From Escherichia phage 55: DNA of 64,000 bases. The DNA lies in sequence record OQ599310; one strand, given 5' to 3'. Position numbers and translations under genes: made by a program. Below, in pieces: positions 11,657 through 59,312 of the stretch. Numbering within the stretch: position 1 is the first letter of the stretch; the number at the start of each line of letters is the position of its first letter. Below the pieces are notes generated by a model. The model ran no database searches. It was not told the origin of the DNA and saw only the letters and a program-made list of their open reading frames with translations.

Positions 11657-11674
11657 GGGAGACCGAAGTCTCCC
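11657..11674. terminator. hairpin GGGAGAC-cgaa-GTCTCCC after gene 35
   Basis: Perfect 7-bp stem with tetraloop; same hairpin sequence recurs at 59266-59283. Confidence 0.6.
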
Positions 11675-20701: not shown

Positions 20702-20719
20702 GGGAGACTTCGGTCTCCC
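20702..20719 (+). terminator. hairpin GGGAGAC-UUCG-GUCUCCC followed by TTTT, after gene 32
   Basis: Perfect 7-bp stem, UUCG loop, T-run. Confidence 0.7.
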
Positions 20720-27624: not shown

Positions 27625-27638
27625 GGGACTTCGGTCCC
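27625..27638 (+). terminator. hairpin GGGAC-UUCG-GUCCC after nrdB
   Basis: 5-bp stem, UUCG loop; T-rich tract downstream. Confidence 0.5.
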
Positions 27639-36163: not shown

Positions 36164-36168
36164 TTTTA

Positions 36169-36186
36169 GGGAGACTTCGGTCTCCC
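36169..36186 (+). terminator. hairpin GGGAGAC-UUCG-GUCUCCC followed by TTTT
   Basis: Identical hairpin to 20702-20719. Confidence 0.7.
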
Positions 36187-36223
36187 TTTTGTGCGTTTAG
36201 GGCAGAAAAAGTTTAAAAAAGAT

Positions 36224-37112: not shown

Positions 37113-37128
37113 GGGAGCTTCGGCTCCC
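37113..37128 (+). terminator. hairpin GGGAGC-UUCG-GCUCCC
   Basis: Perfect 6-bp stem with UUCG loop after the stop at 37105. Confidence 0.6.
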
Positions 37129-41251: not shown

Positions 41252-41439
41252 TGAAAGCTTATTTAGAAACAGTTATTGTAGCTAAGAAGGATGGTGGAGA
41301 TGTTTCCACCTCTTGCTCTCAGATTATATTAGATTTTCCTAATGAAAATTCGTATCGGGTTTTCGTAGATAACGTTAATGGGTACGAAAAAGGCCCTAAT
41401 TTTGAAGTTTATCGTACTTTGCTCCCGATTGTGGATTAA
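41251..41439 (+). CDS. hypothetical protein (62 aa), alt.-1-position
   Basis: Start moved to ATG 41251 (TAATG overlap with the ligase stop). Confidence 0.4.
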   Translation: MKAYLETVIVAKKDGGDVSTSCSQIILDFPNENSYRVFVDNVNGYEKGPNFEVYRTLLPIVD

Positions 41440-41454
41440 GAGCCTTCGGGCTCT
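41439..41454 (+). terminator. hairpin AGAGCC-UUCG-GGCUCU followed by TTTTT
   Basis: 6-bp stem, UUCG loop, T-run. Confidence 0.6.
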
Positions 41455-41494
41455 TTTTGGCATAAATATAAATTATTACTAAAAGGAAAACACT

Positions 41495-51370: not shown

Positions 51371-51784
51371 ATGAAGCTGGAAGATTTACAGGAAGAGTTA
51401 GACGCAGACTTAGCTATTGATACGACAAAGTTGCAATATGAGACGGCGAATAATGTTAAGTTATACAGCAAATGGCTACGTAAGCACTCATTTATTCGTA
51501 AAGAAATGTTGCGTATAGAGACTCAGAAGAAAACTGCTCTAAAAGCAAGATTAGACTACTACTCGGGACGAGGTGATGGTGATGAATTCAGTATGGACCG
51601 ATACGAAAAATCTGAAATGAAAACTGTCCTGGCCGCAGATAAAGATGTGCTTAAAATAGAGACTACTTTACAATACTGGGGAATTTTACTTGAGTTCTGT
51701 AGTGGTGCACTTGATGCAGTTAAGTCTCGTAGTTTTGCACTTAAACATATCCAGGATATGCGAGAATTTGAAGCGGGGCAATAA
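51371..51784 (+). CDS. uvsY: UvsY recombination mediator
   Basis: Start moved to internal ATG 51371, giving 137 aa, the length of T4 UvsY. Confidence 0.85.
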   Translation: MKLEDLQEELDADLAIDTTKLQYETANNVKLYSKWLRKHSFIRKEMLRIETQKKTALKARLDYYSGRGDGDEFSMDRYEKSEMKTVLAADKDVLKIETTLQYWGILLEFCSGALDAVKSRSFALKHIQDMREFEAGQ

Positions 51785-52008
51785 TGCGTTATTCAATTGA
51801 AGATGCCTTTAATAATGATGAAGAATTTGAAACTGAAATTAAATTCTTAATGGAAAAGTATCGTCTACGACGTCAGGATATTCGTATTCTGGCCGACCAT
51901 CCTTGTGGCGAAGACGTCCTTTATATTAAAGGGAAGTTTGCTGGGTACATCGACGAGTATTTTTATACAAAAGATATGGGTATCGATATGTGCATGCGAA
52001 TGGTATAA
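51784..52008 (+). CDS. hypothetical protein (74 aa), uvsY.-1-position
   Basis: ORF track; start overlaps the uvsY stop. Confidence 0.45.
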   Translation: MRYSIEDAFNNDEEFETEIKFLMEKYRLRRQDIRILADHPCGEDVLYIKGKFAGYIDEYFYTKDMGIDMCMRMV

Positions 52009-52040
52009 ATAGATATGTAATTTCAACTTAGGAGGCAATC

Positions 52041-52208
52041 ATGTCAGATAAGATTTGTGTTGTCTGTAAAACTCCAATCGATTCTGCATTGGTTGTTGAA
52101 ACAGACAAAGGTCCAGCACATCCTGGTCCTTGTTATAATTATGTCCAACAATTGCCGGTTTCAGAAAGTTCAGAAGAGCAATTGAACGAAACCCAACTTT
52201 TACTATAG
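52041..52208 (+). CDS. small Cys-containing protein (55 aa), uvsY.-2-position
   Basis: Not in ORF track; strong SD ggaggcaatcATG; CVVC motif. Confidence 0.4.
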   Translation: MSDKICVVCKTPIDSALVVETDKGPAHPGPCYNYVQQLPVSESSEEQLNETQLLL

Positions 52209-52235
52209 TGTTACCTTTTTTTGCCTATGGTTTTT

Positions 52236-52257
52236 GGCCCTTCCAAAAGGTCGGGCC
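52236..52257. terminator. hairpin GGCCC...GGGCC flanked by T-runs, between convergent genes
   Basis: Stem 52236-52240/52253-52257 with flanking TTTTT and TTTTTT. Confidence 0.55.
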
Positions 52258-52265
52258 TTTTTTAA

Positions 52266-52499
52266 TTAGAAGTCTTCTTCCTCATCCTCATCATCGTCGC
52301 CTTCAAGTTCGGCACGCTTACCTGCTAAGGCATCCCTGACAGAAATATCGTCTGTATCTTTTAATTCCGTTTCTTTTATACGTTTCTTATAATAAGCTTC
52401 CAATTCTTCAAGCCCTTCTAAGGTATGACAACTAGCAATTTTACCCATGAATTCGTCAATAGATGCTTCGTATAAAAATTGTTTAAATTCAAGTACCAT
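52266..52499 (-). CDS. uvsW.1: UvsW.1 (separate small acidic protein)
   Basis: 77 aa ORF directly downstream of uvsW; acidic C-terminus. Confidence 0.75.
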   Translation of the reverse strand: MVLEFKQFLYEASIDEFMGKIASCHTLEGLEELEAYYKKRIKETELKDTDDISVRDALAGKRAELEGDDDEDEEEDF

Positions 52500-52510
52500 T
52501 TTTATCTCCT

Positions 52511-52526
52511 AAGGGCCGAAGCCCTT
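52511..52526 (-). promoter_or_regulatory. hairpin AAGGGC-cgaa-GCCCTT at the uvsW/uvsW.1 junction
   Basis: Perfect stem overlapping the uvsW stop; precedes the uvsW.1 SD. Confidence 0.4.
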
Positions 52527-54039
52527 ATAAATTAATTGTTTTCATTACATAGTTAAATTTCTCATCAGCGTAACGTTGGATACGATCAATACCGTGTTTT
52601 AACAAGTAATTAAGATGAGTATACTTCTTTTTAGTATTTAATGATTTAGGTTTTACACCTGCGTCATCGATGAGATCCCAAACTGTAGCAACAGCTTTAG
52701 AACCATGCTTACGAAGCACACGACCTACTGTTTGAAGTACGATAATTTTTGATTTAACACCATGGGCAAAAATAACATGATGAAGATTCTTGACTGAAAT
52801 ACCAGTAGAGAATACTCCATATGATGCGACAATAATAATGCCTTTACCATTTTCTGCCATGACTTTAAGCGCGTTACGTGTTTCAGTATCAACTTCACCT
52901 GATACGTAATAAACTTTTTCGTATCCAAGCTCTTTAATAGCTTCAAATATTTCTTTACCGTGTGTAACGTGTTTAAACATTACAAAGGCGTTCTCGTCTT
53001 TCTTGGCCAATTTGACTGAAAGTTGGGCAATCCACTTTGTACGTCGTTTTAGTCCGGTAATAATTTTAACTTCTTCTTGGTATGTTTTACCTTTTAATTT
53101 AGTGGCGAATTCGTCCGGATAACGAAGGAAAATACTATTAATCTTAAGCTCAGTTACCTGTCCGTCTTCCATTAATTTAGACGTGCTAACAGGACGGAAG
53201 ATTTCGCCGAACATACCTACGTACTGCATTACATTGGCTTTTCCGTCTCTTAATGAGCCGGATAAACCGAATTTAAACATACAATTATTTAATCCTGAGA
53301 TGATTGAAGAAATACTTTTGCCTGTTGCTAAGTGGCATTCATCGTTCATCATCATACCGAACTGAGAGAACCATTCTTTAGGCTGCTTAACTACCGTTTG
53401 CCATGTGCCAACAATAATTGGAGCGTCGTTTTTAGATTTGTCCGCTTTATCGGCACCACCGCCAATTTTCTTAATCATCGAATGACTAAACAAGCGATAA
53501 TCAACAAAATCATTAGCCATCTGGGTTGTCAATGCTGTTGTAGGGACGATAATGAGAATTTTACCTTCATAGTTCTCTAGATAATATCGAGCTAAAAGTG
53601 CTTGGATTAGTGATTTACCTGCTGATGTCGGAAGGTTTAAAATTCGACGACGATTAACTAGTCCTTCATATACTGCATCTTTTTGATACCAATGTGGTTC
53701 GATTTTGGTGTTGCCCGAATAAATTTCTTGTTTAGAAAGCCATGCGTCAAAATCTTCCCTAGTAAGGTCTTCAGTCTCAAAGATTTTAGGGTCAATCCAT
53801 ACAGAATAACTCATATTGTTACAGAACTTTTTTATTTGTCCTACAAGTCCATATGGTAACAAACGATTGTAATCTAAAAGTCGAATTCTACCATCCCATT
53901 GCCCATAGCGATATTTTGGGTTAAATTTATACCCGTCAGCTTCAAAGCTAAAAAAGTCACGAAGTTCGTAAAACGTACTTTCGTCGCATTCAATGCGAAC
54001 GTGACTAAAATCATAAAAATGTACTTTAATGTCAGTCAT
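52525..54039 (-). CDS. uvsW: UvsW DNA/RNA helicase (SF2)
   Basis: 504 aa; Walker A (PTSAGKS) and DExH-like (MNDECH) motifs. Confidence 0.92.
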   Translation of the reverse strand: MTDIKVHFYDFSHVRIECDESTFYELRDFFSFEADGYKFNPKYRYGQWDGRIRLLDYNRLLPYGLVGQIKKFCNNMSYSVWIDPKIFETEDLTREDFDAWLSKQEIYSGNTKIEPHWYQKDAVYEGLVNRRRILNLPTSAGKSLIQALLARYYLENYEGKILIIVPTTALTTQMANDFVDYRLFSHSMIKKIGGGADKADKSKNDAPIIVGTWQTVVKQPKEWFSQFGMMMNDECHLATGKSISSIISGLNNCMFKFGLSGSLRDGKANVMQYVGMFGEIFRPVSTSKLMEDGQVTELKINSIFLRYPDEFATKLKGKTYQEEVKIITGLKRRTKWIAQLSVKLAKKDENAFVMFKHVTHGKEIFEAIKELGYEKVYYVSGEVDTETRNALKVMAENGKGIIIVASYGVFSTGISVKNLHHVIFAHGVKSKIIVLQTVGRVLRKHGSKAVATVWDLIDDAGVKPKSLNTKKKYTHLNYLLKHGIDRIQRYADEKFNYVMKTINL

Positions 54040-54068
54040 GTCAAATTACCATGTAATAAATATAGTTA

Positions 54069-54076
54069 TATTTATA
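54069..54076 (-). promoter_or_regulatory. late promoter TATAAATA for uvsW
   Basis: Reverse complement of tatttata 54069-54076. Confidence 0.45.
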
Positions 54077-54089
54077 ATGAGGAAATACC

Positions 54090-54758
54090 ATGATCGATAA
54101 AGACTATATTGAAGAGTTACGTGCTCTTTCTGATAAAAAGGAAGCCAAAGCTAAACTGTTTGAATATGCGGAACAATTTGGCATTAGTGTTAAGAAAACA
54201 AAATCATTCGATAATATTGTTATTGATATCGAAGAAGCTCTTAACGCACTGGCTGATGAACCATTACCTGAAACTGATGGATTATCTATCACCGATTTAA
54301 TTACTGCCGCAGATGATGTGGACGGTGTTAATTTCACCAACGAAGAAGTTAAAGAAGAAGCTATTCTGTTGTTTGATTCTCCAACAGAACAAGTTGAAGT
54401 ATTAGAAGTTGTCGAACAAGAAAAAGAATTCGACCATGATAAATTCGAAGAAGCAATTACTCAGGTTGTTGAATCTGAAAAAGAGCCTGAGTCAGAGGTA
54501 AATAAAGAAGTAAATTTTGTTCTGCCTGAAAATTTTAGTCCTACACTTATTAAATTAGGCAAAGGCCCAGGGTATGTTACTGTTCCTTGGTGGATTTATC
54601 AATGGATAGCCGAAACACCTGATTGGAAATCTCGCCCAACTAGTTTTGTGCATGCTTCTGCTCACCAAACATTATTTAGCTTAATTTATTATATTAATCG
54701 CGATGGATCAGTTCTAATTCGTGAAACTCGTAATTCTTCTTTCGTAACATTAAAATAA
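54090..54758 (+). CDS. inh: Inh-like protein (inhibitor of prohead protease), by position
   Basis: 222 aa acidic protein between uvsW and hoc, as T4 Inh. Confidence 0.6.
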   Translation: MIDKDYIEELRALSDKKEAKAKLFEYAEQFGISVKKTKSFDNIVIDIEEALNALADEPLPETDGLSITDLITAADDVDGVNFTNEEVKEEAILLFDSPTEQVEVLEVVEQEKEFDHDKFEEAITQVVESEKEPESEVNKEVNFVLPENFSPTLIKLGKGPGYVTVPWWIYQWIAETPDWKSRPTSFVHASAHQTLFSLIYYINRDGSVLIRETRNSSFVTLK

Positions 54759-55898: not shown

Positions 55899-55903
55899 TC
55901 GTA

Positions 55904-55917
55904 GGGGCTTCGGCCCC
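55904..55917 (+). terminator. hairpin GGGGC-UUCG-GCCCC followed by TTT
   Basis: 5-bp stem with UUCG loop after hoc. Confidence 0.6.
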
Positions 55918-55991
55918 TTTCTTCGTTTTAAAGCATATAAAACACAACTTGAGATTGATGTATATAATGGCACAAACCAAATAATACGGGA

Positions 55992-59255: not shown

Positions 59256-59265
59256 AACCAAAAAT

Positions 59266-59283
59266 GGGAGACCGAAGTCTCCC
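59266..59283. terminator. hairpin GGGAGAC-cgaa-GUCUCCC
   Basis: Identical to 11657-11674; between convergent orphan gene (+) and gene 23 (-). Confidence 0.65.
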
Positions 59284-59312
59284 ATAAGGTTATGTATTTT
59301 AACGTTAAAGCA

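Follow-up and report, generated by a model that had tools for sequence, protein, structure and literature searches.

A conserved C(UUCG)G hairpin at the junction between the separate genes uvsW and uvsW.1 in the RB69-like Escherichia phage 55

Does the uvsW region of a T4-like phage hold one long gene or two, and what might be the role of the hairpin that lies at the point of division? Both questions are raised by the locus at positions 52,266 to 54,039 of Escherichia phage 55 (OQ599310), which was analysed within a window of 64,000 nucleotides, that is, the whole stretch of DNA under study. The window comes from an RB69-like Mosigvirus of the T4 family. Its uvsW–uvsW.1 region, to which roughly 536 phage records were matched, is 99.1% identical to that of Mosigvirus ATK47; identity is 98–99% with further RB69-like phages and about 79% with T4-type phages. 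Both genes are encoded on the minus strand. The uvsW gene (52525..54039, stop codon included) encodes an SF2 DNA helicase of 504 aa and terminates with TAA at 52527–52525. Immediately downstream on the same strand lies uvsW.1 (52266..52499, stop codon included), which has its own ATG at 52499–52497 and whose 77-aa product is helical and carries an acidic tail with Phe as its last residue. The spacer between the uvsW stop codon and this ATG is 25 nt long (52500–52524), the frame of uvsW.1 is offset by one relative to that of uvsW, and a Shine-Dalgarno (SD) sequence GGAG is found at 52506..52509 on the minus strand, 6 nt before the ATG. Among the neighbours, inh and hoc are divergent, whereas uvsY.-2, uvsY.-1, uvsY and gene 25 are convergent, and the same neighbours are found in RB69 and T4. 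T4 differs from the window in carrying segE between inh and uvsW. The analysis bears out in full a first-pass annotation of this DNA, which had placed the end of the helicase ORF at 52525, a distinct 77-aa ORF 25 bp further on and a perfect hairpin over the uvsW stop codon, and had seen in this the corrected two-gene layout of T4.

The identity of the two products is clear from comparison with known structures and families. Alignment with T4 UvsW and UvsW.1, which the first-pass annotation had proposed as a check, reveals that both products match separately solved T4 proteins. Residues 3–504 of UvsW align end to end with residues 2–502 of PDB 2OCA (1027 bits), and both the window ORF and the PDB sequence end in the C-terminus ...KT(I/V)NL, before the sequence of UvsW.1. 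Pfam domains PF21241 UvsW_N (151.9 bits), ResIII, DEAD and Helicase_C are matched, and a Walker A-type PTSAGKS motif and a DECH motif are present in the translation. The 504-aa protein is the RecG/Rad54-like SF2 helicase UvsW. UvsW.1 aligns from its own Met with PDB 2JPN (E = 3e-39) and matches Pfam PF11637 as a stand-alone protein with 93.3 bits (gathering cutoff 25). All of the 74 UvsW.1 homologues that were found are small proteins, nearly all of 74–79 aa, and their alignment contains 28 invariant columns, the C-terminal F among them. In a later review, UvsW.1 is termed a trihelical potential DNA-binding partner of UvsW (PMC7824862). Amino-acid identity to T4 amounts to 87.5% for UvsW and 89.5% for UvsW.1. 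Compared with T4, uvsW shows a pN of 0.09 and a pS of 0.77, and uvsW.1 a dN/dS of about 0.03; across both genes pN is about 0.09–0.10 and pS about 0.74–0.77, with synonymous sites near saturation. Because pN is low against a high pS, uvsW and uvsW.1 are real, constrained genes.

The T4 uvsW/uvsW.1 gene pair was reportedly treated by Sickmier in 2004 and by Kerr and colleagues in 2007. In all five T4-like genomes of one comparative study, the counterpart of the T4 'uvsW' region had proved to consist of two ORFs, and this layout was then confirmed for T4 by crystallography and resequencing (Nolan et al., 2006, PMC1524935). In the GenBank record of RB69 (AY303349), uvsW and uvsW.1 are annotated separately at matching positions. 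Since the RB69 annotation, the study of Nolan et al. and the T4 structures (PDB 2OCA and 2JPN) agree, as does resequenced T4, the two-gene reading is established knowledge, and the first-pass annotation was right to invoke it. A sequencing artefact behind the split, by which an error would hide a single long frame, is excluded: among many T4-like genera, each of some 45 independent loci at which the ends of both genes could be located also has two ORFs, and the offset between their frames is 0, 1 or 2. No fusion of UvsW with UvsW.1 was detected by HMMER among 1.84 billion representative proteins, and no protein with a UvsW.1 domain exceeds 295 aa there. A fusion produced by programmed frameshifting or readthrough was also rejected, because the frame offset varies by lineage, every uvsW.1 comes with an SD and an ATG of its own, and a fused representative is missing from that search.

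A fused uvsW of 587 aa is nevertheless still present in the T4 RefSeq record NC_000866.4. This record reads TTTAATAAGCTTCGGCCC, whereas resequenced T4 (KJ477684) and other tequatroviruses read TTTATAAGGGCTTCGGCCC. Two G are missing and one A is extra in the RefSeq version, which gives a net change of –1 base, and the discrepancy falls within the 5' arm of the junction hairpin. Gel compression in the GC-rich stem would fit as the natural cause of this error. The sequence of KJ477684 is correct, with neither uvsW nor uvsW.1 annotated, and many phage records label UvsW.1 as 'DNA helicase'.

The junction hairpin itself (52510..52527, minus strand) is a perfect inverted repeat with a 7-bp stem and a 4-nt loop. 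Its arms of 7 nt, UAAGGGC and GCCCUUA, are 100% complementary (7/7 pairs) and enclose a UUCG tetraloop that is closed by a C–G pair. The 5' arm opens with UAA, the stop codon of uvsW, and the 3' arm is directly abutted by the GGAG of uvsW.1. For the isolated hairpin, a free energy of –10.1 kcal/mol was computed. The hairpin is retained in both the MFE and the centroid folds of its 76-nt context, and since the z-score of the whole context is only –1.36, the signal is that of a local hairpin and not of a larger fold. A search of positions 51900–54200 against Rfam (E ≤ 1) returned no family. A possible pairing of the AUG region with codons 6–9 of uvsW.1 through an AU-rich inverted repeat was considered and dropped, being absent from the predicted folds. 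The downstream structures predicted for T4 and for two metagenomic lineages (L077 and L081) differ from one another.

This hairpin is a member of the T4-type C(UUCG)G class, whose members are set just after stop codons. The class is said to have been first described in T4 mRNA by Tuerk and colleagues in 1988. Unusually high thermal stability and a block to reverse transcriptase are its hallmarks. Relative to 100 dinucleotide-preserving shuffles of the window, perfect UUCG-loop hairpins are strongly over-represented, with 7 observed against 0.05 expected at a stem length of 7 bp or more and 10 against 0.23 at 6 bp or more; the string CTTCGG was counted 29 times where 15.7 were expected. The window contains ten C(UUCG)G hairpins, whose stems measure 5–9 bp, and all ten are intergenic, although only about 6% of the window is non-coding (94% coding). 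Nine of the ten lie on the sense strand, with start points that range from 3 nt inside the stop codon of the upstream gene to 27 nt past it. By comparison, the UUCG-loop hairpins without a C–G closing pair (n = 3) lie inside ORFs, as expected of chance. A T-rich tail follows about six of the ten. Terminator-type members with a U-tract are located, for example, at 11657–11674, 20702–20719 and 59264–59285, and members that abut the ribosome-binding site of the next gene at 52510–52527 (the uvsW/uvsW.1 junction), 37113–37128 and 27625–27638. The junction hairpin resembles the T4 class in its C–G-closed UUCG loop, its GC-rich stem, its intercistronic position on the sense strand and its over-representation. 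Unlike the terminator-type members, it overlaps the stop codon, abuts the next SD and has no U-tract. The class as such is regarded as a general folding or stability element with no single assigned function (PMC4371310).

Comparison with T4 indicates how closely this junction has been kept. While 58% of the four-fold sites of uvsW differ between the window and T4, the 28-nt junction from stop codon to ATG shows 3 differences, and its 16-nt core AAGGGCTTCGGCCCTT shows none; under the divergence of four-fold sites, an identical core has a probability of about 1e-6. The junction DNA is identical to that of RB69, base for base, and both RB69 and T4 share with the window the gene order and the succession of stop codon, hairpin, GGAG and ATG, which in T4 is seen in the resequenced genome. 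The stem has 7 bp in the window and 6 bp in T4, where U·U takes the place of the outer U–A pair. A block TAAGGGCTTCGGCCCTT(T/A)GGAGA was also found in the two metagenomic lineages L077 and L081, in which the sequence from SD to ATG differs, and the hairpin core is identical in T4, RB69 and these two lineages. The GGAG of uvsW.1 is kept in every hairpin-bearing lineage. In every lineage that bears the C(UUCG)G hairpin the stem is likewise invariant, and because it never varies there is no compensatory covariation, so selection could act on the sequence rather than on the structure. Another hairpin offers a local comparison: between the convergent genes uvsW.1 and uvsY.-2, a GC-rich hairpin of the form GGCCC...GGGCC is predicted at 52236..52257, and relative to T4 its stems are kept but its loop has diverged, which indicates that unconstrained intergenic bases do change at this distance. 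Judged from these comparisons, the junction hairpin is under strong purifying selection. A pattern scan of IMG/VR for Tequatrovirus/Mosigvirus junctions yielded 8 loci, all of which were already in the comparison. The idea that the hairpin was imported by the homing-endonuclease cassette of some relatives was rejected, as the endonuclease ORF ends with ...KTVNL ahead of the hairpin. Since this ORF ends in old uvsW codons before the hairpin is reached, the hairpin predates the endonuclease insertion.

Signals for transcription were found on either side of the gene pair. A T4-type late promoter motif TATAAATA is located at 54069..54076 on the minus strand, 30 nt upstream of the uvsW ATG. No second TATAAATA occurs on the minus strand between this site and uvsW.1, no excess of sigma-70-like sites was detected in the region, and a scan of 51700–54300 returned 0 terminator-like sites. 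Because the late motif stands only before uvsW, with no promoter or terminator-like site between the two genes, uvsW and uvsW.1 probably form one late transcription unit. In the window, the stem of the junction hairpin is followed by GGAGAUAA, without a U-tract, and for this reason the hairpin is not a canonical intrinsic terminator. The hairpin at 52236..52257, downstream of uvsW.1, has been called a conserved bidirectional terminator (Nolan et al., 2006, PMC1524935). In its 76-nt context the predicted fold reaches –18.3 kcal/mol (z = –2.5), and a T-run (52258–52263) is present on the plus-strand side only. In the literature on T4, a search for 3'-end or Term-seq data found nothing usable.

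Across the T4-like genera, the junction between the two genes takes several forms. At most loci there is no hairpin; the two genes either overlap, in the form ATGA or TAATG, or are separated by a spacer of 5–9 nt, with the SD lying over the stop codon. Overlapping or near-abutting junctions of this kind are exemplified by JS98 (Dhakavirus), CHI14 (Winklervirus), Marfa and RB16, and a metagenomic relative whose UvsW.1 is 82% identical has a spacer of 7 nt. Coupling by ATGA or TAATG overlap is used at this junction in JS98, CHI14 and many other loci; the window differs in having a 25-nt spacer, a hairpin and a separate SD. Because most genera use overlaps or spacers of 5–9 nt, the hairpin is not needed to express uvsW.1 as such. 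The C(UUCG)G junction hairpin is restricted to Tequatrovirus, Mosigvirus and close relatives. Unrelated GC-rich hairpins are found 0–6 nt past the uvsW stop codon in Krischvirus ECD7, Yersinia phage TG1 and Pectobacterium phage PM2, and all three pass the terminator-like scan on the sense strand. From the distribution of these sequences, a strong stem-loop just past the uvsW stop codon appears to have arisen repeatedly.

What, then, does the junction hairpin do? The two genes are separate cistrons, probably of one late unit, and in the most likely reading, to which we assign a probability of roughly 45%, the hairpin acts as an mRNA 3'-end or decay barrier that decouples the two segments. The late unit would begin at the TATAAATA promoter and end at the hairpin that it shares with the convergent uvsY.-2. 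The junction hairpin would fold once ribosomes and RNA polymerase are past, and the folded stem would then constitute a 3' end, or a barrier to 3'->5' exonucleases, for the uvsW message. As a result, the uvsW and uvsW.1 segments of the mRNA could accumulate independently, with uvsW.1 being translated from its own GGAG and ATG, and the hairpin would stand in for the direct stop/start overlap coupling of most other T4-like genera. That the hairpin, like its class, directly follows a stop codon suggests that it acts on the 3' side of the uvsW message. The co-transcription of the two genes is proposed from the single late promoter motif, and the decoupling by a decay barrier from position and by analogy. 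The intercistronic stem-loops known as REP sequences in the malEFG operon of E. coli are said to have been found by Newbury and colleagues in 1987 to stabilise the upstream mRNA. REP-type stem-loops share with the role proposed here their stability, their position between co-transcribed genes and their lack of terminator features, but the window hairpin has no sequence relation to REP and is much shorter, and the likeness concerns the proposed mode only. Moreover, as the window hairpin lacks terminator-like features in the scan, its role as a barrier would need a further, unproven step of downstream cleavage or 3'-end formation. It is plausible, as the first-pass annotation suggested, that coupling or RNA stability could be modulated by the hairpin.

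Other explanations place the action of the hairpin in translation or in transcription. The hairpin could tune translation, by controlling termination and reinitiation or by presenting the SD of uvsW.1, and so make uvsW.1 depend on, or be insulated from, the ribosomes of uvsW. The stop codon is inside the 5' arm, so that every terminating ribosome must melt the stem, and GGAG comes right after the 3' arm; in addition, the classical coupling at this junction in other genera suggests that the UvsW:UvsW.1 ratio matters. Accessibility of the ribosome-binding site, calculated as partition-function unpaired probabilities for the native junction, for 200 shuffles of the 15 nt past the stop codon and for a deletion of the hairpin, points the other way. 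With the native hairpin the unpaired probability is 0.60 for the SD and 0.49 for the AUG, values at which 35% and 30% of the shuffles, respectively, are at least as open, and both sites are less accessible than when the hairpin is deleted. The idea of an 'RBS presenter' is thus unsupported, as in the modelling the hairpin does not open the SD or the AUG, and a consensus GGAG at 6-nt spacing should permit independent initiation. Tuning of translation is therefore considered unlikely. Rather less likely again is a weak or partial intrinsic terminator, an attenuator that would let fewer transcripts reach uvsW.1. The terminator-like junction hairpins of ECD7, TG1 and PM2, the T-rich tails of about six of the window's ten C(UUCG)G hairpins and the UUU that follows the T4 hairpin are consistent with attenuation, yet the GGAGAUAA behind the window stem and the empty terminator scan argue against it, and no promoter motif was found that could re-start transcription for uvsW.1.

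The hairpin might instead position or protect a processing site, either for a RegB cut in GGAG or for an RNase E cut upstream, in which case the stem would be the protective 5' hairpin of a monocistronic uvsW.1 mRNA. The sequence GGAGAUAAAAA matches 9 of the 11 positions of the RegB/S1 consensus GGAGRAYARAA (PMC1702504) and is predicted to be largely single-stranded, in line with the unpaired probability of the SD, and AU-rich sequence lies 5' of the stem. However, consensus positions 6 and 7 deviate, and RegB cuts the intergenic GGAG of early transcripts while sites in late mRNAs are cut not at all or very poorly (PMC1702504), whereas uvsW carries a late promoter motif. Processing is accordingly regarded as improbable. 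Finally, the hairpin could have no function, being a neutral remnant or owing its identity across genera to recent recombination. T-even phages exchange DNA freely, and this very junction is a site of homing-endonuclease insertions. Nevertheless, both flanks are synonymously saturated while the 16-nt core is identical, the block is kept in four lineages with differing sequence after the SD, and the loop of the neighbouring intergenic hairpin has diverged. A functionless hairpin is on these grounds very improbable indeed, and the reading as a 3'-end or decay barrier is preferred.

Both the two-gene arrangement and the hairpin class were already known and are found here in a phage closely related to RB69. 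What is new is minor: that the T4 reference error falls within the hairpin, how strongly the hairpin is conserved and how varied the junctions are among genera. Given how long the two-gene layout and the class of hairpin have been established, the finding is of small biological importance, and its practical value lies in annotation. The overlapping and hairpin-bearing junctions also provide a clean natural experiment on the balance of expression within an operon in T4-like phages. A wider and rather doubtful proposal is that the hairpin may be a selected cis-regulatory RNA that sets the UvsW:UvsW.1 ratio and that such elements arose in at least four separate acquisitions (in Tequatrovirus/Mosigvirus, Krischvirus, the Yersinia TG1 group and Pectobacterium PM2), each replacing ancestral overlap coupling. 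If this were true, uncoupling the helicase from its small partner would be adaptive in some hosts.

The fused 587-aa uvsW is still annotated in the T4 RefSeq record NC_000866.4 (1678-3441 of the T4 locus compared here), and the sequence discrepancy in that record falls within the 5' arm of the C(UUCG)G hairpin at the uvsW/uvsW.1 junction. In the resequenced T4 'wild' (KJ477684) the sequence is correct, yet both uvsW and uvsW.1 are unannotated. Annotation of uvsW.1 is also missing in the Mosigvirus ATK47.

Some relatives carry a homing-endonuclease-like ORF of ~230 aa between uvsW and uvsW.1, immediately 5' of the conserved hairpin. It was observed in phage vB_EcoM_G8 (L007:1783-2475) and likewise in locus L004, as well as in a metagenomic lineage (L081:388-1077) and likewise in L082. 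The ORF contains a NUMOD3 domain (Pfam) and, by eye, an HNH-like motif. In G8, its final codons (...KTVNL) are those of the former uvsW end, and uvsW itself has gained a new end, ...MKEVKL. A further insertion at this junction is suggested in Yersinia phage fHe-Yen9-01, a TG1 relative, where the DNA upstream of uvsW.1 bears no relation to the 3' end of uvsW and the BLAST match breaks into two pieces, with additional hypothetical ORFs. Upstream of uvsW, T4 has the homing-endonuclease gene segE between inh and uvsW (1058-1675 of its locus), whereas segE is absent from the corresponding interval of the window (54040-54089).

Besides the junction hairpin, the window contains nine more C(UUCG)G hairpins, all intergenic, at 3304-3321, 11657-11674, 20702-20719, 27625-27638, 36168-36187, 37113-37128, 41438-41455, 55903-55918 and 59264-59285. 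The stem GGGAGAC/GTCTCCC, within which GGAG lies, is common to four of the nine. At 3304-3321 UUCG is on the antisense strand; read on the plus strand, this hairpin has a CGAA loop and resembles a terminator. The hairpin between the convergent uvsW.1 and uvsY.-2 (52236-52263) has been described as bidirectional (PMC1524935). Since its T-run is found on the plus-strand side only, it is predicted from the sequence to be a canonical terminator for uvsY.-2 alone, and not for the uvsW/uvsW.1 transcript. The late-promoter motif TATAAATA occurs on the plus strand at the extreme end of uvsY.-1 (52004-52011); uvsY.-2 starts 30 nt downstream of it, at 52041.

As for the UvsW.1 protein, its domain was detected at the N-terminus of three proteins of ~290 aa (P0094, P0095 and P0096; 70-78 bits), in two of which it is followed by a cytidylyltransferase-like region scoring slightly under the Pfam cutoff. 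To our knowledge, such a domain combination has not been described. The C-terminus of UvsW.1 (52266-52298) is the acidic tail DDDEDEEEDF, and among 15 diverse homologues the last Phe and one earlier Glu are invariant. This acidic tail with its invariant final Phe recalls SSB proteins, whose C-terminal tails are likewise acidic.
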